IMG/VR virus record: IMGVR_UViG_3300011116_001234
Location: 2,212 to 66,211 of that record
Reading direction: 5' to 3' (one strand)
From: a virus
Lineage: Duplodnaviria; Caudoviricetes
Length of the DNA stretch: 64,000 nucleotides
Part shown: positions 3,205-25,314 of the stretch, in pieces
How positions within the stretch are numbered: the first letter of the stretch is position 1
How the letters are laid out: each line of letters opens with the position of its first letter
Notes under the pieces: model-generated
What the model saw: only the letters and a program-made list of their open reading frames with translations
Databases searched by the model: none
What the model was told of the DNA's origin: nothing
Program-made: the position numbers and the translations under genes

Positions 3205-4014
3205 TTAGTCGAAGAATACAAGGGTTCCTTCGGCACCTGAACGACGGATACCGATGTTTCCTGCATGGAAGTCACGGATACCTTTGCCACGGAGTTTCCA
3301 CATACCTGTTATTAGGTTTTCGTACCAATCTGATCTTAGTCTTAGTTCTTCTCCGATATCCTTGATTAGTTCTTTTTGATCATCGTCGAAGGGATCTTGT
3401 GAGAGCAAGTCTTGGAGGTTATAACCGACGATGAACTTTTCTGCTATGGCATCTAGGAAGAGTTCCATTTCTAGTTCATTGTCTGGTATTTCTAGTTTTT
3501 CCATGATTATCCAGTTGATTTCTTGGTTATGGAATTTGAAAGTACCTTGGTCATAGATCATAGGGACGTAGTTAGCGATGCTTTCATTATTGGAAGAGGA
3601 TTCACGTACAGTTGTTTGTGTGGTTGATGGGGGAGGAGATTTTGTTGGGATTGGTTTTCCATACAGGTCTGCTGATGCTTTTTCTGCACGTTTTTTGGAG
3701 GAGAACGTTGTGTCCCAAGGAGTTTCCAGTTCAAGTTTAAGGATTTGGTTGTTTCCGAGGGTGAAGGCATCACCTTTGGAGCCACCTCCGAGGTGTTCAA
3801 AGGTTTCTGCATTTTTGGTTATTCTATCAAAGGTGTTTTTGTTTTGTTGATAGAAGTCTTCGGTTAGTTTTTGGTAGGTTGGGTAACTGTTTGCGGTGGC
3901 GATTTTTTTTAGTTCTTTTTTTGTATCGCTGTCGGAATTTTTCATCATATCTGTTAAAGCTGATATGATTTGATTATGGGTTGGGGATTCAAAGAGGAGT
4001 TTATATAGTTTCAT
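3205..4014 (-). CDS. Protein kinase-like protein with MKLYKLLFE tag
   Basis: LGGGSKG, ILK, IIMEKL, DFHAGN, terminal FFD. Confidence 0.75.
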   Translation of the reverse strand: MKLYKLLFESPTHNQIISALTDMMKNSDSDTKKELKKIATANSYPTYQKLTEDFYQQNKNTFDRITKNAETFEHLGGGSKGDAFTLGNNQILKLELETPWDTTFSSKKRAEKASADLYGKPIPTKSPPPSTTQTTVRESSSNNESIANYVPMIYDQGTFKFHNQEINWIIMEKLEIPDNELEMELFLDAIAEKFIVGYNLQDLLSQDPFDDDQKELIKDIGEELRLRSDWYENLITGMWKLRGKGIRDFHAGNIGIRRSGAEGTLVFFD

Positions 4015-5394: not shown

Positions 5395-6417
5395 CTAGTT
5401 TATGGGTGTGCAGCTTGTTCGAATCCATGCTGTAGTAAAATCACCTGTTCTAGAGCAAACATATGTTTCTCTATCTGTTCTACTACGCACACAAGATCCT
5501 ACGTTAATATCTCTTGTAAGAGTTGTGCTATAGCACGTTGTAGGTGTTTGTTCTGGATTTATAACGGTTAAAGGATAGCTCATTGCACAACGAAGCATTC
5601 CACGTTCCCATACCCCATCACTTGCACAGGTATACCATTGACGATCTGATCTAGCTTGCACGCAAGTATCTGCTGGAACGAATCTTGCTAGTGTTGCGCT
5701 ATGACATTGTTGTACCGGAGGAAATGAGGATGATCCTACAAAGTATATTGTTCCATCCCATTCCCAATGCCAATCTTCTGAGGGTACTGTTCTACGGAAT
5801 CCAAAGGATGCTGCATGGTTAATAAGCCAAGAATTTGCTGCTGTACCTAAATCCAACGCAATACCGGATTGGTGATTAGAGAAGCCGGGATAAGCCGCAA
5901 GGTTTCCAACACCTCTGCGATAAAGATCATAAAGATAGCGTTGTTGATCCATTGTTCTAAAGCCACTATTAAGAACAAGAGATATTCCACTGGCTCTTGC
6001 AGCATTTTGCATACGCATAAATGCTCTTGCTGTGTTTACTTCAATCAGTTTACCTTGAAGGGTAACAACACAAATCGTGCGAGGTACACCGTGATTATAA
6101 CCTTGAACAGTTCTACAGTTTTCCAGTGCTGCTGCACATTGAGCAATACCTGCTGTTAGGTTCACACAAGCTGGTGCATCATTGATTTCTGGTGCCATCT
6201 CTCTTTGTTCTTGTTCAAAATGGCTAATAGCCGCCAGGGATGGTGAACTTTCCTCATCAAGATTATTGATGATTCTAGAGTTTGCACTCTCTTGTTCAGA
6301 CAATGGATTATCCACAATTGGTGGATACTTGTTGGGGGTTGGTGTTAAAGAGGAGTCTGTTGGGGCTGCACAGGCTGTTAGAAGGAGAACTGTTAGAAGA
6401 GTGATGAGGTGTTTCAT
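5395..6417 (-). CDS. Lipoprotein M15 (VanY-like) Zn peptidase with two Cys-rich C-terminal repeats; candidate lysin
   Basis: Lipobox LTAC; SGFR, SNHQSGIALD, EDWHW; start moved to MKHL because the longer ORF overlaps tmRNA. Confidence 0.85.
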   Translation of the reverse strand: MKHLITLLTVLLLTACAAPTDSSLTPTPNKYPPIVDNPLSEQESANSRIINNLDEESSPSLAAISHFEQEQREMAPEINDAPACVNLTAGIAQCAAALENCRTVQGYNHGVPRTICVVTLQGKLIEVNTARAFMRMQNAARASGISLVLNSGFRTMDQQRYLYDLYRRGVGNLAAYPGFSNHQSGIALDLGTAANSWLINHAASFGFRRTVPSEDWHWEWDGTIYFVGSSSFPPVQQCHSATLARFVPADTCVQARSDRQWYTCASDGVWERGMLRCAMSYPLTVINPEQTPTTCYSTTLTRDINVGSCVRSRTDRETYVCSRTGDFTTAWIRTSCTPIN

Positions 6418-6466: not shown

Positions 6467-6822
6467 GGTGGATCTAGAGGGAGTCGAACCCTCGTCCAGA
6501 AAAGCATCGAAACAAATCTACTACGCAATGTAGTTTGTCTTTATACTGTCTCATGACTTCAACAAACAAAACCCATGAGAAGCGTCTTTAGTGTCTTAAT
6601 CCCGTTTACAAATGACAAATCTAACGAGAAGCAATCTGATTGTTGACAAACCTACAACGTACAGATGGAACTTTGTAGGCCCGTCTAGGTCACTGTATCA
6701 AGCAGCGAGAGCTAGAGGTTGTGCGTTATCGTTTGCACTTACGTTTGCACATTGTTAGAGCGGCTATACCCCGCTGTTACGCAATTTGTTCTTATCTTCC
6801 CTGTCGAAACCTTTATAGACCC
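6467..6822 (-). ncRNA. ssrA: tmRNA, tag ANDNAQPLALAA
   Basis: GGGTCTA/TAGATCC acceptor with G3:U pair, TTCGACT T-loop, tag ORF 6736-6698. Confidence 0.95.
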
Positions 6823-15988: not shown

Positions 15989-16645
15989 CTAAACGTATTT
16001 GATTTCAAACTTCAAAACCTTGTGTACGCCTTTTGCGTCGCCTGTAAAGCTGCTAAAAGAGATTGTGCAGTCTCCCTTGAGAAGCTCCGCTAAAGGGTAC
16101 TCAGAAAAAGCGTAGGAGAGTATTGGTTTAGCCATGGAAACTTCTTTACTATTTACAAGTTCATGAACTGAAATAACTTGCTCTGGATTGTTGTAATGAA
16201 TACGGAAGTGATGTGGTTGTCCATCATTCATCTTGCGGTGAACATACTTCTTTTCAACAACAGAGTTTTCTACACGAAGAACGATTTCGTTGCCGCTATC
16301 ATTTTCTAGATTCTTGTATGTGTCAAAATTGATAACCAATCCGTCTGGCACCAATCCATCTTGGCCGCTGAAGATAAGAGAGATTCCATCTCCTCCTCTT
16401 CCTTCAGCATCTTTTAAACCTTCTGAGCTTTCGATCTGGAATACAATGTCTGCTTTCCATGAACGGTCATGTAGGTCTATTGGAGACTTGAGTGTTGCTT
16501 TACCGCTTTGATGATAATCATCTGTGAGAACGATTTCATCTCCTTCAATGCGGGCAGCATCTTCAAGTTCTACATCTTGTTCAGAGAACTTTGGATATAT
16601 TTCTTTGTTGTTGAACTGTTCAAAAAGGATAGGATATAGTTTCAT
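15989..16645 (-). CDS. L-type (legume) lectin domain protein with MKLYPILFE tag
   Basis: GGDGISLIF, INFDTYKN, DGQPHHFRIHY, SFSSFTG. Confidence 0.8.
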   Translation of the reverse strand: MKLYPILFEQFNNKEIYPKFSEQDVELEDAARIEGDEIVLTDDYHQSGKATLKSPIDLHDRSWKADIVFQIESSEGLKDAEGRGGDGISLIFSGQDGLVPDGLVINFDTYKNLENDSGNEIVLRVENSVVEKKYVHRKMNDGQPHHFRIHYNNPEQVISVHELVNSKEVSMAKPILSYAFSEYPLAELLKGDCTISFSSFTGDAKGVHKVLKFEIKYV

Positions 16646-16658
16646 GAACCATAAATAG

Positions 16659-16690
16659 AAAAACTCCAGAAGATTTCTCCTCTGGAGTTC
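16659..16690 (-). terminator. Terminator of tRNA cluster
   Basis: GAAA-capped hairpin with T tract; nearly identical hairpin at 19350. Confidence 0.75.
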
Positions 16691-16698
16691 TAAAAGTG

Positions 16699-16772
16699 TA
16701 CCGACGATCAGAGTTGAATTGATGACATGGAGCTTATGAAACTCCCACTCTAACCAACTGAGTTACATCGAC
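16699..16772 (-). tRNA. tRNA CAT (Met or Ile2), degenerate
   Basis: Cloverleaf with TTCATAA loop; several G:U pairs and a T-stem mismatch. Confidence 0.7.
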
Positions 16773-16774
16773 AC

Positions 16775-16850
16775 TGGTGGGTCATGAAGGAGTTGAACCT
16801 TCGACCAAGAGATTAAGAGTCTCCTGCTCTGCCAACTGAGCTAATGACCC
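16775..16850 (-). tRNA. tRNA-Lys(CTT)
   Basis: Canonical cloverleaf, encoded CCA. Confidence 0.95.
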
Positions 16851-16856
16851 AAACTT

Positions 16857-16931
16857 TGGCTCCTTGAGCTGGGATCGAACCAGCGACAAAACGGTTAACA
16901 GCCGTTTGTTCTGCCTCTGAACTATCAAGGA
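16857..16931 (-). tRNA. tRNA-Asn(GTT)
   Basis: Canonical cloverleaf, encoded CCA. Confidence 0.95.
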
Positions 16932-16971
16932 ATACAATTTCTATATTGTCTGTTCTATCTTATTTGTTTAG

Positions 16972-17044
16972 TGGGTTGTACTGGGATCGAACCAGTGACC
17001 AAAAAGTTAAAAGCTTTTTGCTCTTCCAACTGAGCTAACAACCC
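16972..17044 (-). tRNA. tRNA-Lys(TTT)
   Basis: Canonical cloverleaf. Confidence 0.93.
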
Positions 17045-17052
17045 TTAGATAG

Positions 17053-17125
17053 TCTGCCCACCGAGACTTGAACTCGGACTCAAGCGATTATAAGTCGCAC
17101 GTTTTAACCATTAAACTATGGGCAG
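17053..17125 (-). tRNA. tRNA-Ile(TAT)
   Basis: CTGCCCA/TGGGCAG acceptor, CTTATAA loop. Confidence 0.88.
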
Positions 17126-17129
17126 TTAA

Positions 17130-17322
17130 TAAGAGAGACACCCATCACATCAGTCGGGAACCGCACCCGAATCACGAAATTATCAATATGTGTTTTTCTG
17201 ATTCCTAGCTTTTGCTCAAGGCCGTTATTCTATAAAATTAGCTACTTACTAGGTTTAAACTACTAATCCGATGATGGACTCATTTCTTAAAATAAATCTG
17301 AATCCGTTCTGTGTCTCTCTTA
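17130..17322 (-). ncRNA. Candidate tRNA-like structured RNA
   Basis: 12-bp closing stem, T-arm-like TCGGG TGCGGTT CCCGA, promoter TTTAGA-17-TATTCT directly upstream. Confidence 0.55.
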
Positions 17323-17557
17323 CAAACATAGAATAGCAACTCGGAGATCAAATCTAAAACTTTACTTTCATTTTTTTGTCGTTTCTGCGTTTTCAAGAAT
17401 CTTTGCTGCATGATAGCACAAAACCAATAAATCCTGAGAAAAGAAATTACCTAACCCTTCCGCAATTTGTTGTTTTGTGTGCCCATAACGCATTCTTGTT
17501 CGTATTGCTTTAATGCATTCGTCAATATCTGTGTTCATATTTTCTCATTATCGGCCA

Positions 17558-17893
17558 TCAAGCACGACCATAATCGTCTTGATAACGTTTGATATCGCTT
17601 TCTTCGCAAATACCCATTTGAACTTCTATTAGTTCAACGTCTTCACTAGCAACAATCCGATGCTTGTGAGTTTTTGGAACAAAGAGGTATTGTCCTGTTT
17701 GTACTGGATGCTGCTCACCATTTAGCTCAACAACACCTGTACCGCTTACCACAACCCAGTGCTCATCTCTGTGATCATGAGATTGCAAGCTTAGTCTGCA
17801 ACCCTTTTTAACAAAGAGTTTTTTAATTTTGTAGTTTGAACCTTGTTCGATTGTTTCAAACCATCCCCAAGGTCTTTCTTCTCTTTCTTTCAT
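17558..17893 (-). CDS. Cupin, mannose-6-phosphate isomerase type II C-terminal-like
   Basis: ERPWG, LSLQSH..RDEHW, IEVQ, DDYGR. Confidence 0.9.
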   Translation of the reverse strand: MKEREERPWGWFETIEQGSNYKIKKLFVKKGCRLSLQSHDHRDEHWVVVSGTGVVELNGEQHPVQTGQYLFVPKTHKHRIVASEDVELIEVQMGICEESDIKRYQDDYGRA

Positions 17894-17973
17894 TTTGTTT
17901 CTCTTTCTTTGGAACTTGTGTTTGTGTGCGGTGTCCAACAATAGACACCTATTTGGTTGTCAACGGAGTAAAT

Positions 17974-19344
17974 ATGTCAATACAACAAACACCATCAATA
18001 AACGTTGTTGATCTACATGAGTTCGATAAACAAGGCACTTCAACTATCGAAGTTTGTGTGCTTTGGGGTTCTTCTGTTCTCCATGTATCACATATCAACC
18101 AAAACGAAAGGTTTGTGCTAGCTAGCGAAAATACTATAAAGGATTGCAATCGTTTTGTTGTTGGGTCTGATGTTATTGGTGATTTAAAAGAAGTTCCTGT
18201 TGTAGTCAACGGCCAAGATGGAGCCAAGTTTATAGTCAACCAAGAACAGTTGGAGATAAAAGCAGAAGAGCGTTATCTCGCAACCTTTGGTAACCTAACA
18301 ATCGTTGCCAAACAAGTTGTGCAAGGCAAAAAGATTCCTCGCTCCAGAAAACATGACAAAACAATGTTGATTACTAGCTTGTGTTCCGCTATCGTTGTTT
18401 TTGCAACAATACTTGCAACACATTTTCTAGTTGATATAAACAACAGTCTTTTGGTTCAAGGAAACGAAGAAGATCGTTTAAATGAACTTCGTGGCTTTAT
18501 GCAGCGTCAACAAGAACGTCAACAAGAACAACAAACTATCCCAACCGAAAATACTCAACAAGGTGCAGCAAGTGCTGCTCATACAGGTCCATCTGGTCAA
18601 ATGGGAAACCATCAAGCACCCCAAAGAAACACTCGCAGAGCCATTATAAACAATGGAGAACAGCCTCATCTAACTCGTCAAGCTGCAAGAGATGCCGTTG
18701 CTAATAGAGGAATCTTTGCTGCTCTTGGTTCTCCCGGTGGAGCATCTGGTGGTTCATCTGGTATTGTATCTCCATTCGGAGGAATGACAGAATCTGGACC
18801 AGATAATCACAACGCAAATGGCAACCTAATAGGAGATTCTATTGGAGATGCCTTTGGATATAATGGATTAGGTCCAACTGGAACAGGTTGGGGAGGAGGA
18901 GATAGAGATGAACAAACTATTGGTGCTGGACCTTTAGGTACAATCGGTCATGATGGCAATCAAAGATATGGTATAGATCGAGGAACCAATCTACGGAATC
19001 GTGACCGTCACGGCCCAATAGTTCGTGCAGCAGCCCCAAATGTGATTGGTCTACTATCACCAGAATCAATCCGTAGAGTTGTCCTTCGCAACCTTTCTCA
19101 AGTTACTCATTGCCATGAACAAGGATTGATTCAGAATCCATCTCTAGAAGGCCGTGTAGTCGTTCGTTTTGCCATTGGTGGCAATGGTACTATCCTAGCC
19201 TCTAACGTGGCAGAAAGCACCCTTCCAGAGCCTTCTGTGGCCCAATGCATTGCTGGTGCTGTAAGACGCTGGCAGTTTCCTACTCCAGAAGGTAATGGAG
19301 TTGTTATCGTAAACTATCCATTCAATCTTCAACATCCAGAATGA
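17974..19344 (+). CDS. AgmX/PglI C-terminal domain (GltG/TonB-like) membrane protein
   Basis: One TM helix, Gly-rich linker, IRRVV..N..Q..HCHEQGL..NPSLEGRVVVRFAI...CIAGAVRRWQFP; GGAG before 17974. Confidence 0.85.
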   Translation: MSIQQTPSINVVDLHEFDKQGTSTIEVCVLWGSSVLHVSHINQNERFVLASENTIKDCNRFVVGSDVIGDLKEVPVVVNGQDGAKFIVNQEQLEIKAEERYLATFGNLTIVAKQVVQGKKIPRSRKHDKTMLITSLCSAIVVFATILATHFLVDINNSLLVQGNEEDRLNELRGFMQRQQERQQEQQTIPTENTQQGAASAAHTGPSGQMGNHQAPQRNTRRAIINNGEQPHLTRQAARDAVANRGIFAALGSPGGASGGSSGIVSPFGGMTESGPDNHNANGNLIGDSIGDAFGYNGLGPTGTGWGGGDRDEQTIGAGPLGTIGHDGNQRYGIDRGTNLRNRDRHGPIVRAAAPNVIGLLSPESIRRVVLRNLSQVTHCHEQGLIQNPSLEGRVVVRFAIGGNGTILASNVAESTLPEPSVAQCIAGAVRRWQFPTPEGNGVVIVNYPFNLQHPE

Positions 19345-19348
19345 TAAA

Positions 19349-19384
19349 AGAAAACCCCAGAAGATTTCTCCTCTGGGGTTCTTT
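19349..19384. terminator. Bidirectional terminator
   Basis: AACCCCAGA...TCTGGGGTT with A and T tracts. Confidence 0.8.
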
Positions 19385-19385
19385 A

Positions 19386-19443
19386 TTACAAACTTTTTTT
19401 CATTTTCTATCTTTTCATGTATTTCGCCATGACAGTTAGAACA
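19386..19443 (-). pseudogene. C-terminal remnant of an HNH endonuclease
   Basis: Reads CSNCHGEIHEKIENEKKF; fused to truncated tRNA-Gly. Confidence 0.65.
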
Positions 19444-19444
19444 T

Positions 19445-19498
19445 GAACCGATAACATCACGTTGGAAGCGTGAGGTTTTACCATTAAACTAACCCCGC
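19445..19498 (-). pseudogene. Truncated tRNA-Gly(TCC)
   Basis: Intact up to ATCGGTTC; 3' T-stem and acceptor strand missing. Confidence 0.8.
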
Positions 19499-19501
19499 AA
19501 G

Positions 19502-19573
19502 TAGGCGCAACTAGATTTGAACTCGTATGAACAATGTGAAAAACTGTTATCCTAACCATTAGATGATGGAACC
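19502..19573 (-). pseudogene. Degenerate tRNA-Glu(TTC)
   Basis: D and anticodon arms present; acceptor and T stems mispaired. Confidence 0.7.
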
Positions 19574-19577
19574 AGAG

Positions 19578-19661
19578 TGGAGCGTCTGAGAATCGAACTC
19601 AGTAGATCGAAAGATCGCCGGTTTTACAGACCGGTGCCCCGTCCAGTGAGGCGCACGCTCC
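19578..19661 (-). tRNA. tRNA-Tyr(GTA)
   Basis: Cloverleaf with long variable arm. Confidence 0.9.
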
Positions 19662-19766
19662 AAATGACTTACTCACAGTGAAGTCAGACTGAGATGTTGT
19701 ACCTTACATCCATTACAATCAGCAAGCTAGATTGGTGCTCCATTTATTAACCGCATGGATACGGGG

Positions 19767-19851
19767 CAGAAGGTGAGGGATTCGAACCCCCGGTGCCTCT
19801 CGACACTTCGGTTTTCAAGACCGACGTTTTAAACCGCTCAACCAACCTTCT
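19767..19851 (-). tRNA. tRNA-Ser(TGA)
   Basis: Long variable arm, G discriminator. Confidence 0.93.
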
Positions 19852-19908
19852 AAGTCAACCTACCACTAACTCAATCAACCTTATTGTCAAAGAACCAAAC
19901 TACTTGAG

Positions 19909-19982
19909 TCGGAGCGACACGGATCGAACGTGCGTCATCTTCATCCCAAATGAAGTGCCTGAAACCACTAGGCTACGCTCCG
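19909..19982 (-). tRNA. tRNA-Pro(TGG)
   Basis: CGGAGCG/CGCTCCG acceptor, TTTGGGA loop. Confidence 0.92.
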
Positions 19983-20182
19983 ATATTGTTTCTGCGATTA
20001 AGTGATATGTTGTTTTGTATCCTAATCGTTTTATTGTTCAATGTCCAAATCTCACCGTTATCCATCGCACAGACATACAACAAATCATGTTCTTGTGAGT
20101 AATCGATAACTAAAAAAGCGTATCCTTTCATTTCATCTGATACACGGATTATGGGCAACGTGGGATTCAACTGAAGCATCAT
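19973..20182 (-). CDS. Hypothetical protein
   Basis: Coupled to upstream ORF; 3' end overlaps tRNA-Pro. Confidence 0.7.
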   Translation of the reverse strand: MMLQLNPTLPIIRVSDEMKGYAFLVIDYSQEHDLLYVCAMDNGEIWTLNNKTIRIQNNISLNRRNNIGA

Positions 20183-20448
20183 GGATCGATTTCATTGTCG
20201 CAATCGAAACAGTGATCACTTTCTGGTATAGTTACCAGTTTCGTTGTTCCATCTTTTTGTGGAATAACAAACGTGCAGGTTGCTGCATCATATTCAACAT
20301 CTTTGTTGCATCTTTTGCACTGATATGTTCTTGCGTCAAAGATCTTTCTACGATTGCAGTTTTTGCATTTTAATGGATCACCGCTCCAATGACTGCTAAA
20401 TGTTGTCTCTTGTTTGCAATGCTCGCAAAGTGCATTTTTATAAAGCAT
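20179..20448 (-). CDS. Multi-CxxC zinc-ribbon protein
   Basis: Four CxxC pairs. Confidence 0.7.
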   Translation of the reverse strand: MLYKNALCEHCKQETTFSSHWSGDPLKCKNCNRRKIFDARTYQCKRCNKDVEYDAATCTFVIPQKDGTTKLVTIPESDHCFDCDNEIDP

Positions 20449-20482
20449 GTTCTTGTGCTATTCTTTTTGTGGGCGACGGCGT

Positions 20483-20779
20483 TTATTTCACCTTGCAGTT
20501 AAAACAGTTGAACTCTGGTGGGTGTCCATCGTCAAAAGTTCGAGTACTATGCCAGTACCCCTCCCTGCCAGTTGAGAAGTTGATCTCGTCGGTTCCCAAA
20601 AGGGCCGACAAAGCGTTCAATTGCTGGAAGGTTAGGATATGCCCTTGTTGGGCCACAAAGGCAACACAATAACCCCTTTCTGGGTCTTTGTGCTCTGCAT
20701 AGTAGTTTGGCTTGAACCCAAACAAATCCTTGATACTCTTTTCAAACAAGTAGGCTTTAGGATTGATTGTTTGTGACAT
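20483..20779 (-). CDS. Hypothetical protein
   Basis: ORF in co-oriented run. Confidence 0.65.
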   Translation of the reverse strand: MSQTINPKAYLFEKSIKDLFGFKPNYYAEHKDPERGYCVAFVAQQGHILTFQQLNALSALLGTDEINFSTGREGYWHSTRTFDDGHPPEFNCFNCKVK

Positions 20780-20818
20780 TGGGTGTCTCTGCTCCGTAAA
20801 CTTTTCCCGTAATGTTTG

Positions 20819-20867
20819 TGCAAGCGACGGGACTTGAACCCGTATGCCCGAAGGCGAGAGATTTTAG
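20819..20867 (-). pseudogene. 3' half of a tRNA-Leu
   Basis: Begins at anticodon loop (TAAAATCTCT); long variable arm, T arm, CGCTTGC-A. Confidence 0.8.
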
Positions 20868-20942
20868 TAGCCACAGTGGGATTCGAACCCACACTTTGGA
20901 GATTTTAAGTCTCCTGCCTGCTGCCGGTTGGGCTATGTGGCC
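20868..20942 (-). tRNA. tRNA-Leu(TAA), short variable arm
   Basis: Cloverleaf, CTTAAAA loop; own TTTACA-17-TAGAGT promoter. Confidence 0.9.
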
Positions 20943-21053
20943 GTTTGTTATATCTTTACTCTAACACTTCTTTTTCAGATTGTAAATCTATTTCTTTTTG
21001 CGGTATACTTATTTATAGTGTCGAATCAATGCCTCTGCCATATGGAGTATACT

Positions 21054-21851
21054 ATGCCTAAATCTAAAACTTGGACAGATGACCAACTAATCTTTGCTGT
21101 AAAATCTTCTTATTCTATTGCTAGCGTTCTTTTGCAGCTTGGTTTGAAAGCTACTGGTGGTAACTATAAAACCATTCAAAATGCCGTAAAACGTTTGCAG
21201 CTAAATACATCACATTGGACAGGCAAAGGACATTTACGAGGAAAAACTCATAACTGGGCTCCTATGAGGGATTTTGAAGATATTTTAGTTGAAGATAGCA
21301 ACTACGTTTCTACTTTCAGTTTGAAACATCGCTTGTTAAGGGCGAATCTTTTATCTTATGAATGTTCAGTTTGTCATATATCTTCTTGGCAAGGCAAAGA
21401 ACTAGCCTTGCAACTAGATCACATAAATGGGATAAACAACGATCATCGTTTGGAAAACTTAAGGTTGTTATGTCCTAACTGTCATTCACAAACAGATACA
21501 TTTGCGGGAAAGAATAAAAAGAAGATGGTAGGGCCGGAGGGACTTGAACCCCCAGTTGCGATTTCCGCTGCTGCTCTTGAGGCAGCCGTGTCTGCCATTC
21601 CACCACGACCCCAGAATCAATGCAATAAATGTCAAAGACCTATTCAAAAACGTTCAAACAGATGCACGTATTGTAAAACAGATGAAAAGATTGTTTGGCC
21701 CTCGAAAGAGGAACTTGAAAAGTTAGTTTGGTCAACATCGTGTTCAAAACTATCACAACAACTTGGTGTTTCTGATAAGGCTATTGAAAAACGATGTAAA
21801 AAACTAGGTATTTCGAAACCTCCAAGGGGCTATTGGGCCAAACAACATTAG
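21054..21851 (+). CDS. HNH homing endonuclease with C-terminal Zn finger and HTH
   Basis: LQLDHING..NDHRLENLRLLCPNCH; GGAG before 21054. Confidence 0.92.
   Translation: MPKSKTWTDDQLIFAVKSSYSIASVLLQLGLKATGGNYKTIQNAVKRLQLNTSHWTGKGHLRGKTHNWAPMRDFEDILVEDSNYVSTFSLKHRLLRANLLSYECSVCHISSWQGKELALQLDHINGINNDHRLENLRLLCPNCHSQTDTFAGKNKKKMVGPEGLEPPVAISAAALEAAVSAIPPRPQNQCNKCQRPIQKRSNRCTYCKTDEKIVWPSKEELEKLVWSTSCSKLSQQLGVSDKAIEKRCKKLGISKPPRGYWAKQH
21526..21612 (-). tRNA. tRNA-Leu(CAA), antisense inside the HNH ORF
   Basis: Full 87-nt class II cloverleaf with CCA. Confidence 0.92.
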
Positions 21852-21881
21852 CTCCTGTGTCTGCCATTCCACCACAAGGGC
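21850..21881 (-). pseudogene. 5' half of a tRNA-Leu
   Basis: GCCCTTGTGGTGGAATGGCAGACACAGGAGCT, broken at the HNH stop; promoter upstream. Confidence 0.8.
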
Positions 21882-21937
21882 TCTGTCGTTATCTGCATTC
21901 TTACTCTAGCAGTCTCTTATTCGTTTGTAAAACTATT

Positions 21938-22192
21938 TCAGATTTTTTCTGCCAATCCTTTTTTTGTGTATACACGCTCTACTTCAACAATCTCCATCGG
22001 AGCAGAATATGGCAATGTTCGATTATGGGTTTTTGCCAGTTTGTTGCAATTGGTTACGTGTGTTTTTGCATCACCTAGACGATCCCATACACGGGCTTCA
22101 TCTACTGTAGTCCAATCTTGGATTGAATGAACATATCCAACGGAATAGAAGCCTGTTGCTGGGTTGTAGATTGCGTAGTGTTTTGTGCTCAT
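21938..22192 (-). CDS. Hypothetical protein
   Basis: ORF in co-oriented run. Confidence 0.65.
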   Translation of the reverse strand: MSTKHYAIYNPATGFYSVGYVHSIQDWTTVDEARVWDRLGDAKTHVTNCNKLAKTHNRTLPYSAPMEIVEVERVYTKKGLAEKI

Positions 22193-22198
22193 GTTACA

Positions 22199-22585
22199 TT
22201 ACCTATTCAGTATTTGATTTAGGAGTTGTTGTTCTCTAGCCCAACTATAGCTTTCACAAACGGTTTCTGGTTTAAGCCATTCACCATTATCATCTTTTTC
22301 TTCTGTTCTGATCCAGAGAGAGATACCGCCCGTTGCATCGAAATCAATCATCACTACATCTCTTGATGTTGGCGTTTCATTGTTTGCTGCAACGATATGT
22401 CCAAGATGGGTTTGTCTTGAGAATATTCTCCAGCCTAAAACGTTAAGTCTTTGCTGTAAGTATGAATATACAAACTCAGTTGATCCTACTCTTGGGTAGG
22501 TAGCTACATATCTTGTTTGGTTCATACAGCCACTCATCATTGCAATCATCAAACAAAGATACAGCGTCGTGATTTGTTTGATCAT
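22199..22585 (-). CDS. Putative lipoprotein
   Basis: Hydrophobic N terminus ending MSGC. Confidence 0.65.
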   Translation of the reverse strand: MIKQITTLYLCLMIAMMSGCMNQTRYVATYPRVGSTEFVYSYLQQRLNVLGWRIFSRQTHLGHIVAANNETPTSRDVVMIDFDATGGISLWIRTEEKDDNGEWLKPETVCESYSWAREQQLLNQILNR

Positions 22586-22597
22586 TTATCTCTTTAG

Positions 22598-22671
22598 TAC
22601 GCTCTACTGGGCTCGAACCAGTGACCTACGGCTTAGAAGGCCGTTGCTCTATCCAACTGAGCTAAGAGCGC
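22598..22671 (-). tRNA. tRNA-Arg(TCT)
   Basis: Canonical cloverleaf; TTTACA-17-TATAGT promoter. Confidence 0.95.
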
Positions 22672-22857
22672 ATTGTTTATCTCTCGTTATCGGGAGATAA
22701 TACAACTATATCAATAGTATATTCTTTTGTAAAGGTTATTTTTCTTTTCCAAGAGAAAAGAAGAAACTGATGATTAATGCCACAAAAACAAGGATATATT
22801 TTGTGACTGACATATAAGTTTTGGTGGCCTCCTAGATAAATATATGTCTTATTGCAG

Positions 22858-25314
22858 TTATCGCAAGAAACCTAGAGTATACACAAGAGGTCGCATACGA
22901 TTCTCAAACGCCTTATATGCATCCCTAAATGCCTTGAACTCCAACTTGTGATAATCCTTCCAAATCAACTTAAGCTGTGCATATCCAGCATCCCAACAAT
23001 CCAAGTGATATTCTGGATGCTGTTGAGAAACAATCTGACGCATACCAAATGACTTCTCTACAAGTTCTGTTGCCATGTCCAACACACGCTTGGCATCTGG
23101 AGAAAGCTTGTTATATACATCGTTGGCTTGCAGCAAACTTCCAGACTTAATGAACAGCATGTTGTGAACATAACGATCGTTGCCGCTATTCTTTGTATCA
23201 CGATAAAGCTCATCGTAATCATGCTTCTCCGCTAGCTCTTGCATCCTGATCTTTGGCATCCAGAAGAACTCATTCTTGATGTCATGCTTTTTGTTCTTGT
23301 AGGTTACTTGCCGCATCGAAGACTGTTGCGAACTATTGTTGAATAGTGCATATACAAGCGAGTCAGTGGCAAACTGCTGGTAGTCTGTGTGTTGTTCGTT
23401 GGGAGCAAGATATTCGTCCTTGTCATCAATCCACGTTCCCTTTACAGCTTTTCTTGCGGCGAACAGTGCTGTGGCCTTGTCAAAGTTAGCTGGAATGACT
23501 GAAAAACCTTGATGAACTGAGAATGCGCTGGAATAAAGACCGACGAGAGTTTGGTTTTGCTTAATACTGTTAGAGTCATTATGCATATACCCAATGGCGT
23601 TTGTCAGGAGTTTACCTCTTCCATGCTTGACAGACAAAGCTGAAGAAAGTTGTGGAGAATCAGAGTTTGTCTTTAATCCTTTTATTTCTTTACGCACCCA
23701 CTCAGAAGCCTCCATGCTTTTATCAAGGTTATAGAGATTCTTGACACCTTGGTTAATCACCTTGAAAGAAACAGGGTCGGTGTCCAATAGATCCACGGGT
23801 AGAGTATTTCTATTTTCCTTACCGCTCGACCACACAGAGAAATCTATTCCCCAGCTACTCGCAGTATCCGCAAAATGAGAGGCACAAAAAAGCATACCGC
23901 TTTCGAAGTGAAACTTTCTATAGAAGTTTGCTCGGAACCCAGAATAAGAGCTTCCAGTTTTATAAAGAGACTTCGCAAATACGGCAATAGTAATGTTTCC
24001 ATGTGTATTGTACTTGCTGATCTTATATAGAAATTGAGCATATAGTTGGATGGCTGCGCCGCCCCACTTTTCCTCCTTCATCAGCTTGCCAGTTAGGGTG
24101 TCGGCAATACCTGCCTTTTTAGCATCTGTAAGCACTTGATTGCCAGATGCTCCGTAGGGAGGATTGATATAGAACAACACCTTCTTCTTTGGGTCGCTGA
24201 GAGCAGCAAGCAACCCCGCTGGCAGCTTGCTATCGTCATCATTAAGAAAGTCGAACTGAAACTTTGTTGCGTTAGGGTTATACCCAGCTTGCTCGGCTGT
24301 GTCAAGATCGCTCTGTTCCAGTGTAGAACAATATAGCTCCTTGAACTGATAGTCTCTCGTTAGATTACCTGTTCCACAAGCGCAATCCCAAACAACATAT
24401 TCGTCTCTCCAATCAGGTCCAAGAGCACGGGTGATATATTCCTGAGACTTATCAACAAACGCTGTTGGAGTAAAGAACTCGCCCTTACGCCTTCGAGTAA
24501 CATCTTCGATAAGTCGATCAACGAATCCTGTTAGTTTTTCCTTTTCTCTTGGCGAATATGTTTCACCTTCATAGTGTTTGAAGAAGGAAGTAAACGAGCT
24601 ACCAATGATCTTTACTTCACCGAATGTTTTAGATAGAAGGATATTCTTCTTTTTCGGATGAACGTAGTTGTCGCTTGGATTGATGATAAGCTGAACGAAT
24701 AGGTTTGCTTCTTGATTGCTTGTAAGTCCAGAGTTCTTCGGCAGGACGTTCCTTTGGAAGTAATCGTAGATGTTTGCGATGTTTTGTTCGGTTACTCTGA
24801 CCTTGTATTCGGAGTTAGTTGCGATTGACTTGATTTTCTCGACGAGGTGTTTTTCTTCAAAACGGCTATCGATATTAAAGATAAATGGTTGAATGTCTGG
24901 GTCATTAACCATGGACAGAAGGAGGTCTGGATTGCGTCGATGTGCGTCGGACGCTGGAGTGTTCCAGTTAATAGGAGAGGTTAGATATTTGGTTAGAACC
25001 TTTGCTGGTAGCACAAAGCATTCGTTGATATCCCCGATAAAGACTGCTGTTGGCATAGTTGTGCCTTGCCCTTCAAACTTCTTAAGATAGAAGAGGGACT
25101 GAACGAGCACGTTACACTGAGCGAGTTTGCTTGTAAAGGTTTCGTTATGCTTGAACTCTAGAAGAACGCTATATCCTTCCTTTGTTTCCAGCAAACCATC
25201 AACCTTGTGAGGAGAGGTAATAGTTGATCCTGTGAAATTTTGGATAAGGCTTGCTCGGTAGATGTTTTCGACATCTTTTTCGTTGAGTGCCTTGGGCAGA
25301 TCAGTCTTGATCAT
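22858..25314 (-). CDS. Type IIG-like restriction-modification enzyme (nuclease plus amino-methyltransferase)
   Basis: VDG...LLEFK, GEFFTP, VWDCACGTGNL, NPPY. Confidence 0.85.
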   Translation of the reverse strand: MIKTDLPKALNEKDVENIYRASLIQNFTGSTITSPHKVDGLLETKEGYSVLLEFKHNETFTSKLAQCNVLVQSLFYLKKFEGQGTTMPTAVFIGDINECFVLPAKVLTKYLTSPINWNTPASDAHRRNPDLLLSMVNDPDIQPFIFNIDSRFEEKHLVEKIKSIATNSEYKVRVTEQNIANIYDYFQRNVLPKNSGLTSNQEANLFVQLIINPSDNYVHPKKKNILLSKTFGEVKIIGSSFTSFFKHYEGETYSPREKEKLTGFVDRLIEDVTRRRKGEFFTPTAFVDKSQEYITRALGPDWRDEYVVWDCACGTGNLTRDYQFKELYCSTLEQSDLDTAEQAGYNPNATKFQFDFLNDDDSKLPAGLLAALSDPKKKVLFYINPPYGASGNQVLTDAKKAGIADTLTGKLMKEEKWGGAAIQLYAQFLYKISKYNTHGNITIAVFAKSLYKTGSSYSGFRANFYRKFHFESGMLFCASHFADTASSWGIDFSVWSSGKENRNTLPVDLLDTDPVSFKVINQGVKNLYNLDKSMEASEWVRKEIKGLKTNSDSPQLSSALSVKHGRGKLLTNAIGYMHNDSNSIKQNQTLVGLYSSAFSVHQGFSVIPANFDKATALFAARKAVKGTWIDDKDEYLAPNEQHTDYQQFATDSLVYALFNNSSQQSSMRQVTYKNKKHDIKNEFFWMPKIRMQELAEKHDYDELYRDTKNSGNDRYVHNMLFIKSGSLLQANDVYNKLSPDAKRVLDMATELVEKSFGMRQIVSQQHPEYHLDCWDAGYAQLKLIWKDYHKLEFKAFRDAYKAFENRMRPLVYTLGFLR

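Follow-up and report, generated by a model that had tools for sequence, protein, structure and literature searches.

SegB is a homing endonuclease of the tRNA cluster of phage T4, and it is described as recognizing the T-psi-C motif of tRNA and as spreading both itself and the neighbouring tRNA genes (PMC2330249). The SegB mRNA is thought to be cut near its stop codon during the maturation of the adjacent tRNA, and the same report names the F-Tfl enzymes of phage T5 as endonucleases that are site-specific and have their genes in the T5 tRNA cluster (PMC2330249). Co-location with tRNAs is widespread among SegB homologues, and SegB drives the amplification of tRNA segments (PMC13096335). In Alphaproteobacteria, selC (tRNA-Sec) is predicted to be nested in selB's open reading frame (ORF), on the sense strand and as a C-terminal extension; remnant versions of the tRNA occur in relatives, the arrangement was proposed to couple the expression of both genes, and it was called the first nested tRNA in a bacterial ORF (PMC8124441). 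In mycobacteriophage Fionnbharth, a case of tRNA-dependent lysogeny, tRNA-Lys(UUU) overlaps gene 37 on the opposite strand (PMC10865867). Here we describe a complete tRNA-Leu(CAA) gene that lies antisense in the middle of the ORF of a predicted HNH homing endonuclease. The locus belongs to a 64-kb stretch (hereafter, the window) of the 66,211-base record of an uncultured virus, IMGVR_UViG_3300011116_001234. We found no report of a tRNA nested antisense in the middle of a homing endonuclease ORF in open-access full text.

The window system resembles SegB in that a homing endonuclease resides in a phage tRNA array. However, SegB has a GIY-YIG fold whereas the window protein belongs to the HNH type, and the tRNA of SegB is adjacent and on the same strand, not nested. 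The report on SegB gives no isotype preference, whereas the family of the window protein is enriched for tRNA-Leu. The T5 enzymes are nearer in sequence: F-TflIV, the product of T5/BF23 hegA (and also F-TflI and F-TflII), is homologous to the window protein over the HNH region, the zinc (Zn) ribbon and the helix-turn-helix (HTH), and hegA of T5 is likewise a free-standing gene between the tRNA genes of a phage tRNA array. Unlike the window gene, hegA has no internal tRNA, shares its strand with the neighbouring tRNA genes, possesses a short linker and encodes a protein of low identity to that of the window. The selB/selC pair shares with the window an entire tRNA gene within a protein ORF and remnant tRNAs in relatives, but the tRNA of the window is antisense and is placed mid-protein, with a folded domain of a putatively mobile nuclease on either side. 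That is, the window does not have the sense-strand, C-terminal type of nesting; a variant of that type was found in the relatives L004/L005. Fionnbharth differs in another way, since that system is one of integrase-mediated integration into a host tRNA gene, and not a homing endonuclease in a phage tRNA array.

The embedded tRNA gene and the reading frame around it

We think it probable that 21526-21612 is genuinely bifunctional, that is, that it serves as a tRNA-Leu(CAA) gene on the minus strand and as the 29-residue linker of an HNH homing endonuclease on the plus strand. The features concerned are as follows.

21526..21612, minus strand: tRNA-Leu(CAA), type II, with A73 and encoded CCA, 87 nt (ARAGORN, Rfam tRNA model); its plus-strand reading is residues 158-186 (the linker)
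21054..21851, plus strand: ORF encoding an HNH homing endonuclease of the long form, 265 aa and stop (PHROG 10822, Pfam HNH, T5/BF23 hegA match)
21054..21524, plus strand: nuclease module, residues 1-157, an N-terminal three-helix bundle and the HNH core, ending in GKNKKK (alignments, AlphaFold2 model, dN/dS)
21612..21848, plus strand: DNA-binding module, residues 187-265, a four-cysteine Zn ribbon and a C-terminal HTH (alignments, AlphaFold2 model, dN/dS)

The window has a G+C content of 40.6%, and ARAGORN found 13 tRNA genes and one transfer-messenger RNA (tmRNA) gene in it, every one on the minus strand. The original prediction had placed a complete tRNA-Leu(CAA) antisense inside the HNH frame, and this was borne out by ARAGORN, by Rfam and by the 265-aa ORF that runs across the tRNA. 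The Rfam tRNA model matched 21526-21612 with 50.5 bits (gathering score 29, E 9e-09). Read on the minus strand, the gene has a long variable arm and ends with A73 and CCA. It can be aligned with free-standing phage tRNA-Leu(CAA) genes, and in the alignment with 10 of these U8, A14, G18, the anticodon and the T-loop positions were kept. Thus the model match, the long variable arm, A73 and the CAA anticodon together place it among the class II tRNA-Leu genes. In the long ORFs of the window, TTG makes up 17% of the leucine codons, and ARAGORN found no second tRNA-Leu(CAA) in the 64 kb. The 87 nt including CCA are a multiple of three and keep the plus-strand frame open, as predicted, and residues 158-186 read exactly MVGPEGLEPPVAISAAALEAAVSAIPPRP. 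The HNH motif precedes the tRNA, and the four-cysteine ribbon and the HTH follow it, so the predicted place of the linker is also correct.

As to the protein, the open frame of the plus strand extends from 20928 to 21851. There is an alternative in-frame ATG at 21042, but we favour the ATG at 21054 as the start because of a Shine-Dalgarno-like GGAG at 21044-21047. PHROG 10822 ('HNH endonuclease') matched residues 1-249 with an E value of 4.7e-55. A tblastn search of cultured phages gave 228 records, which include hegA of T5 and BF23 (annotated as H-N-H endonuclease F-TflIV); the hegA match covers residues 85-256 with about 30% identity (E 1e-15). The 265-aa protein possesses an HNH catalytic core with flanking cysteine pairs, and C104, C107, D122, H123, N125, N135, C140 and C143 of this core were invariant across 33 sequences. 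The cysteines of the Zn ribbon are C190, C193, C204 and C207. Judging from its sequence, the plus-strand product belongs, as a free-standing member, to the T5 F-TflIV / PHROG 10822 family of HNH homing endonucleases.

The AlphaFold2 model, which was built on the 33 sequences, had a mean predicted local distance difference test (pLDDT) value of 83 and a predicted template modelling score of 0.38. It contains four folded pieces, namely, the bundle (residues 9-47), the HNH core (about 74-154), the four-cysteine ribbon (188-210) and the HTH (218-251). The stretch 151-190, which includes the linker, was of low confidence (block pLDDT 53-78) and contained a single short helix, at 172-181. A sequence search of the PDB gave weak HTH and Zn-ribbon matches and nothing stronger, and Foldseek gave nothing at E <= 0.001, with weak matches to HNH enzymes (best E 0.067).

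An alignment of homologues had been proposed together with the original prediction as a check, and it shows the linker as a 29-residue insertion relative to 32 HNH relatives from viral contigs. In the long forms among these relatives, the motif T[FY]xGKxxK is followed by 0-18 residues and then by the first CxxC of the ribbon. The window protein has 29 extra residues at this position, which is exactly the 87-nt tRNA. One of the three antisense frames of the embedded tRNA is open, namely, the one in which the linker is read. The fetched loci gave 729 distinct tRNAs; of their 2187 antisense frames, 676 (31%) were open, and 228 of the 729 had a length divisible by three. A random antisense insertion of a tRNA would thus leave a host ORF intact in roughly 1 case in 10. 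At such a chance level a single case proves little, and the argument therefore rests on conservation.

Conservation of the arrangement in related loci

We searched 5.8 billion proteins with residues 140-215 of the window protein. Eight protein clusters of 264-326 aa were found, with 70-100% identity over these residues, and all of them (8/8) possessed the linker. The metagenome locus L082 encodes a protein of 81% identity, and its tRNA-Leu(CAA), at 656-742, lies within the ORF at 184-978. Contigs from two other studies also span the arrangement: X2 covers 20901-21938 with 20 differences, and X3 covers 20700-21938 with 27 differences.

The window and L082 were aligned codon for codon without gaps. 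The nucleotide identity, the synonymous divergence (dS) and its ratio to the nonsynonymous divergence (dN/dS) of each part are shown below.

N-terminal module: identity 76.6%, dS 1.83, dN/dS 0.067
tRNA/linker: identity 97.7%, dS 0.04, dN/dS uninformative (1 synonymous and 1 nonsynonymous change)
C-terminal module: identity 81.4%, dS 0.88, dN/dS 0.12

By these sequence comparisons, both protein domains are under purifying selection (dN/dS 0.067 and 0.12 against L082). Only 2 of the 87 nt of the tRNA differ, one each in the T and D loops, although 18.9 differences would be expected at the rate of the flanks (binomial P 1.7e-7). At third codon positions, 1 of 29 differed in the linker compared with 94 of 236 in the flanks (P 2e-5). 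That is, the synonymous sites of the linker are frozen; since a constraint on the peptide cannot freeze synonymous sites, this indicates the constraint of an RNA gene.

For the protein relatives, we determined, for each of the 23 stem pairs of the cloverleaf, if some set of synonymous codons would leave it intact. In P0002-P0006 and L082, none of the 23 pairs was necessarily broken, and the forced changes were in loops or were G-U compatible. Thus both the loop changes of L082 and the codon-set test reveal structure-preserving evolution of the embedded tRNA. In the more distant members P0007, P0008 and P0009, at least 8, 4 and 7 of the 23 pairs, respectively, were necessarily broken. P0007 and P0009 carry in-frame deletions of 2 aa, and P0008 could be aligned without gaps. 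The linker was identical to that of the window at 26-29 of 29 residues in P0002-P0006 and L082, and at 14-19 of 29 in P0007-P0009. The N- and C-terminal modules showed 76-99% identity in both groups, the range in P0007-P0009 being 76-87%. In other words, no part of the protein is better conserved than the linker when the cloverleaf is intact, and none is less conserved when it is lost. Because the linker drifts so fast after the loss, the peptide itself seems to be weakly constrained, and because the ORF stays open after the decay of the tRNA in P0007-P0009, the full-length protein appears to be selected for itself. The four ribbon cysteines and the HTH were kept in all nine relatives (9/9). 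Among these nine we found no conserved start codon for a separate C-terminal product, residue M158 being R, L or S in 5 of them.

The close relative L084 shares its neighbouring genes with the window. Up to an intact type II tRNA-Leu(UAA), the left flank of L084 is near-identical to that of the window, and its tRNA-Leu(CAA), its C-terminal module and its remnant of a tRNA 5' half are near-identical to those of the window, but the nuclease module is replaced by a spacer of about 100 nt. In the region 833-1328 of L084, the linker tRNA has no encoded CCA and the C-terminal module lies in an ORF without ATG; this region looks like a decaying or recombined endonuclease gene. The clade is also mosaic, in that the nearest relatives of the N-terminal module (L083, L086 and L090) differ from those of the C-terminal module (L087 and L096). 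P0003 is strongly diverged over about its first 90 residues and (almost) identical to the window protein from about residue 95 in alignment A1, a pattern that suggests a recombination breakpoint inside the nuclease module.

Taken together, the frozen synonymous sites of the tRNA, the purifying selection on the flanking domains and the conservation of the fused ORF in the clade support the dual coding that had been proposed. The further proposal, that the nesting ties the nuclease to a useful tRNA, is reasonable, but the tie is reversible in both directions, since L084 keeps the tRNA without the nuclease half and P0007-P0009 keep the ORF with a broken tRNA.

Flanking tRNA pieces and rival explanations

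The endonuclease ORF is bordered by the following features.

21852..21881, minus strand: decapitated tRNA-Leu that retains the acceptor 5' strand, the D arm and the anticodon stem's 5' side and is interrupted within the anticodon loop, at the stop codon of the ORF; 19 nt are shared with the embedded tRNA
21903..21931, minus strand: promoter-like TTTACA-17-TAGAGT with extended TG (consensus match), the nearest upstream minus-strand site for the embedded tRNA, at about 290 nt
20986-20958, minus strand: divergent promoter-like site TTTACA-17-TAGAGT (consensus match), for the UAA tRNA
20980-21009, plus strand: divergent promoter-like site TTGTAA-18-TATACT (consensus match), for the endonuclease
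20867..20942, minus strand: 76-nt tRNA called as Leu (ARAGORN; Rfam 60.4 bits), whose anticodon is UAA and whose variable loop is short (type I shape), just upstream of the endonuclease gene
20819..20866, minus strand: 3' half of a type II tRNA-Leu(UAA), consisting of the anticodon loop, the variable arm, the T arm and the acceptor 3' strand, directly behind 20867-20942; L084 has the intact form at this position

The existence of the broken 5' half was confirmed, and this half is conserved in L082 and L084. Its predicted sharing of 19 nt with the embedded tRNA is exact (21588-21606 and 21857-21875), and these are the only two occurrences in the 64 kb. The TTTACA-17-TAGAGT element also precedes other tRNA-Leu genes of these loci, and no other minus-strand promoter-like site was found between 21931-21903 and the embedded tRNA. 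A precursor of the embedded tRNA that starts from this nearest site would carry a leader antisense to the C-terminal part of the nuclease. An N-terminal extension of P0004 reveals the neighbouring UAA tRNA in a relative too. Relatives such as L009, L018, L019, L033, L059, L072 and L077 likewise have short tRNAs (74-78 nt) that are called 'Leu'.

The acceptor strands of the two tRNA halves mismatch in the window and pair at only 3 of 7 positions; in a variant among the X15 contigs, the 5' half has an acceptor strand complementary to the 3' half of the window. Around the ORFs of the 34 closest relatives, clear tRNA-Leu fragments of 19-22 nt were found in the window and L082 only, with weaker ones in L146, L033, L021 and L132. 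The flanking halves are therefore not a signature of the whole family.

Further members of the neighbourhood were observed. Rfam gives a tRNA at 19502-19573 (minus strand, 36.5 bits, above the gathering score) and a partial tRNA at 19436-19491 (minus strand, 24.8 bits, model positions 8-63), neither of which was called by ARAGORN; the array may include these as an additional tRNA and an additional tRNA fragment. The tmRNA gene is at 6467-6822 on the minus strand with the tag peptide ANDNAQPLALAA, and L019 and L021 also have a tmRNA near the tRNA array. The ORF listing contains an 818-aa ORF at 22858-25314 on the minus strand with an NPPY-type motif (INPPYG), which suggests that its product is an N6-adenine DNA methyltransferase or a fused restriction-modification enzyme.

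The locus can also be explained in other ways. If the fusion were fortuitous, the working product would be the equivalent of a short-form nuclease, and the C-terminal Zn-ribbon/HTH module would be a dead relic of a long form that is in frame by chance. Short forms of about 150-170 aa ending at GKNKK are indeed common and evidently viable, a stop-free passage in frame is expected by chance about once in 10, and the two modules have different nearest relatives, as described above. A dead module, however, does not agree with the dN/dS of 0.12 at a dS of 0.88 against L082, with the ribbon cysteines and HTH kept in 9/9 relatives, or with the frame that remains open in P0007-P0009, where the tRNA no longer constrains it and where two separate 2-aa deletions are both in frame; we consider this explanation unlikely. 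The converse idea is that the protein is real and the tRNA is a non-functional relic, conserved through recent exchange or gene conversion with tRNA-Leu copies or through a constraint on the linker peptide. The mosaic nature of the clade is in line with this idea, the D arm shared with the 5'-half remnant over 19-22 nt could mediate conversion, and the cloverleaf is clearly lost in three members of the clade. Yet the conserved block coincides with the ends of the tRNA, and the synonymous sites are frozen beyond what a peptide constraint explains (third positions 1/29 vs 94/236, P 2e-5). The peptide drifts (14-19/29) where the cloverleaf is lost, no second Leu(CAA) that could act as a donor was found in the 64 kb, and L084 keeps the tRNA even though its nuclease half is lost. 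The chance that the tRNA is such a relic appears to be small.

Group I introns are known in the anticodon loop of tRNA-Leu(UAA) in cyanobacteria and plastids, and the halves at 21881-21852 and 20866-20819 could be the exons around such an intron, with the endonuclease as the intron ORF. The two halves do flank the block in the right order and on the right strand, both are broken in the anticodon loop, and the variant in X15 has a 5' acceptor strand complementary to the 3' half of the window. Against this, there was no intron family among the 20 Rfam matches at E <= 1 in 16000-24000; the ORF, the complete tRNA and the 111-nt promoter spacer fill the block and leave no room for a ribozyme core; only 3 of 7 acceptor-strand positions pair in the window itself; and the ORF runs antisense to both halves. 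Since we did not find a ribozyme core flanked by pairing exons, this reading was rejected as very improbable. The remaining possibility was an assembly chimera, in which a metagenome assembler collapsed a repeated tRNA and spliced it into the ORF. Arrays of tRNA genes are rich in repeats, and parts of this one, such as 20876-20919, attract hundreds-fold depth from unrelated contigs; but the same arrangement occurs in L082, in the X2 and X3 contigs of two other studies and in eight protein clusters of several sources. Because the arrangement recurs in independently assembled records, an artefact of assembly is excluded for practical purposes.

Several points weigh against a bifunctional 21526-21612. 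The minimum-free-energy fold of the 87 nt was no better than those of shuffled sequences (z -0.08), in a comparison that is uninformative for tRNAs. The Pfam HNH match at residues 104-146 reached 21.2 bits, which is 0.2 below the cut-off of 21.4. The promoter-like sites are consensus matches, and 11 were found compared with 8.0 +/- 3.2 in shuffles of the region. P0002-P0009 are proteins only, so that their tRNA state is deduced from codon sets; the 2-aa gaps seen in P0007 and P0009 are alignment-dependent; and the comparison at the DNA level rests on L082 (full) and L084 (partial). An exchange of the tRNA only between lineages could mimic purifying selection in a family that is visibly mosaic. 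A further tRNA-Leu(CAA) may exist outside the 64 kb, since the estimated completeness of the record is 27%. The RNA-library data of X15 are contigs, covering 20948-21495 and 21472-21865, and show neither transcription, strand, ends nor level.

The endonuclease family and the meaning of the nesting

We then compared the tRNA neighbourhood of 141 distinct family ORFs from the fetched loci. A tRNA overlapped the 3' end of the ORF in 21 cases, lay 0-10 nt from it in 23 and 11-50 nt from it in 12, giving 56 in total, of which 38 were on the same strand as the ORF and 18 on the opposite strand. A tRNA wholly within the ORF was found only in the window, L082 and L004/L005. In L004/L005 (2977-3657), the ORF has 53% identity over the N-terminal module and retains the Zn ribbon, after which it reads through a sense-strand tRNA-Leu(CAA) at 3563-3644; it stops 13 nt past the tRNA, which stands in place of the C-terminal HTH.

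Within 150 nt of family ORFs, 39 of 130 tRNAs were tRNA-Leu compared with 61 of 719 other tRNAs of those loci (odds ratio 4.6, P 4e-10, a value that overstates the enrichment because the loci are not phylogenetically independent). A tRNA-Leu neighbour was present in 19 of the 33 closest relatives and in 15 of 107 more distant ones. The short forms of about 150-170 aa end at the same HNH tail (GKNKK), exactly where the tRNA begins in the window. In L003, the CCA end of an antisense tRNA-Leu(UAA) comes immediately after the stop codon, which is the same joint as in the window in another frame. In L086 and L090, a short form of 57-58% identity lies between tRNA-Leu(UAA) and tRNA-Leu(CAA), all on a single strand, and in Salmonella phage Arash an annotated HNH ORF overlaps a tRNA-Leu by 10 nt. 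As the short forms end and abut a tRNA precisely there, the joint of HNH tail and tRNA seems to be a recurrent recombination point. No C-terminal remnant was found behind the tRNA in the short-form loci at E <= 1e-3 (58 loci; tblastn with 10 queries, L002-L081), so the short forms are not simply frame-broken versions of the state of the window.

The tRNA arrays of phages bearing relatives also contain tRNAs with a CUA anticodon, reported as 'Pyl' by ARAGORN and resembling amber suppressors (L011/L012, about 5797-5870; L056, 2866-2955), and those of L026-L031 contain tRNAs with an enlarged anticodon loop reported as 'taaa'.

No clean endonuclease-free allele was recovered by a megablast search of the phage database or by IMG/VR searches with the nuclease and the flank protein. 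That is, megablast of 20400-22600 against the phage database gave no match, IMG/VR contained no relative of the nuclease above 56% identity, and no relatives of the flank protein (20486-20779) were found in IMG/VR. Joints in X5 (20942>21513 and 20993>21857) and an opposite-strand joint in X3 were left unused, as their sides are of about 30 nt with 80% likeness and may come from other organisms or repeats.

We propose the following mechanism. The tRNA-Leu(CAA) would be a member of the minus-strand tRNA array of the phage and would be made and charged. Its transcription probably starts at the promoter of the decapitated tRNA-Leu gene (21931-21903), and the usual tRNA end-processing enzymes would excise it from the precursor. 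On the plus strand, the same DNA would give a flexible linker that joins the nuclease module (residues 1-157) to the Zn-ribbon/HTH module (residues 187-265) in one polypeptide, and this full-length protein presumably cleaves DNA in the vicinity of tRNA-Leu genes. The nesting probably arose at the recurrent joint of the HNH tail and the tRNA end; its origin may be either the capture of a tRNA into the linker of a long form or the joining of a short form, via the tRNA, to a C-terminal module. It would have survived through a tRNA length divisible by three and one open antisense frame. During homing the tRNA would travel with the endonuclease gene, and the clean loss of either would become harder. 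The weakest step, which was already raised with the original prediction, is the speculation that the convergent tRNA transcript lowers the expression of the endonuclease; the geometry of the promoters permits it.

A bolder interpretation, to which we give a rather low probability, is that the nesting is not a tolerated accident but an evolved alliance, in which the nuclease cuts the tRNA-Leu genes of rivals and installs a package that carries tRNAs. Such cutting in rival phages is hinted at by the tRNA-Leu halves that are broken in the anticodon loop at both ends of the block. Repair would then bring in the nuclease gene with the tRNA-Leu(CAA) enclosed in it and the UAA-reading tRNA next to it. 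The enclosed tRNA might shield the selfish gene from deletion and might itself gain super-Mendelian spread. The convergent transcript could keep nuclease expression low, and the 29-residue linker encoded by the tRNA could reset the spacing of the cleavage and binding modules.

For annotation, our findings are a warning that a tRNA call within an ORF need not mean that the ORF is false. Overlaps of an RNA gene and a protein gene on opposite strands are rare, and their two constraints are hard to separate. The present clade shows three states, namely, both genes intact, the tRNA kept with the nuclease half lost (L084), and the protein kept with the tRNA decayed (P0007-P0009). Because it offers these three states, the cost and benefit of dual coding would be directly measurable. 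The inter-domain linkers of modular nucleases appear to be able to absorb a whole gene, and the link between homing endonucleases and phage tRNA arrays, known from T4 SegB and T5 F-Tfl, is extended here to a large HNH family that prefers tRNA-Leu.

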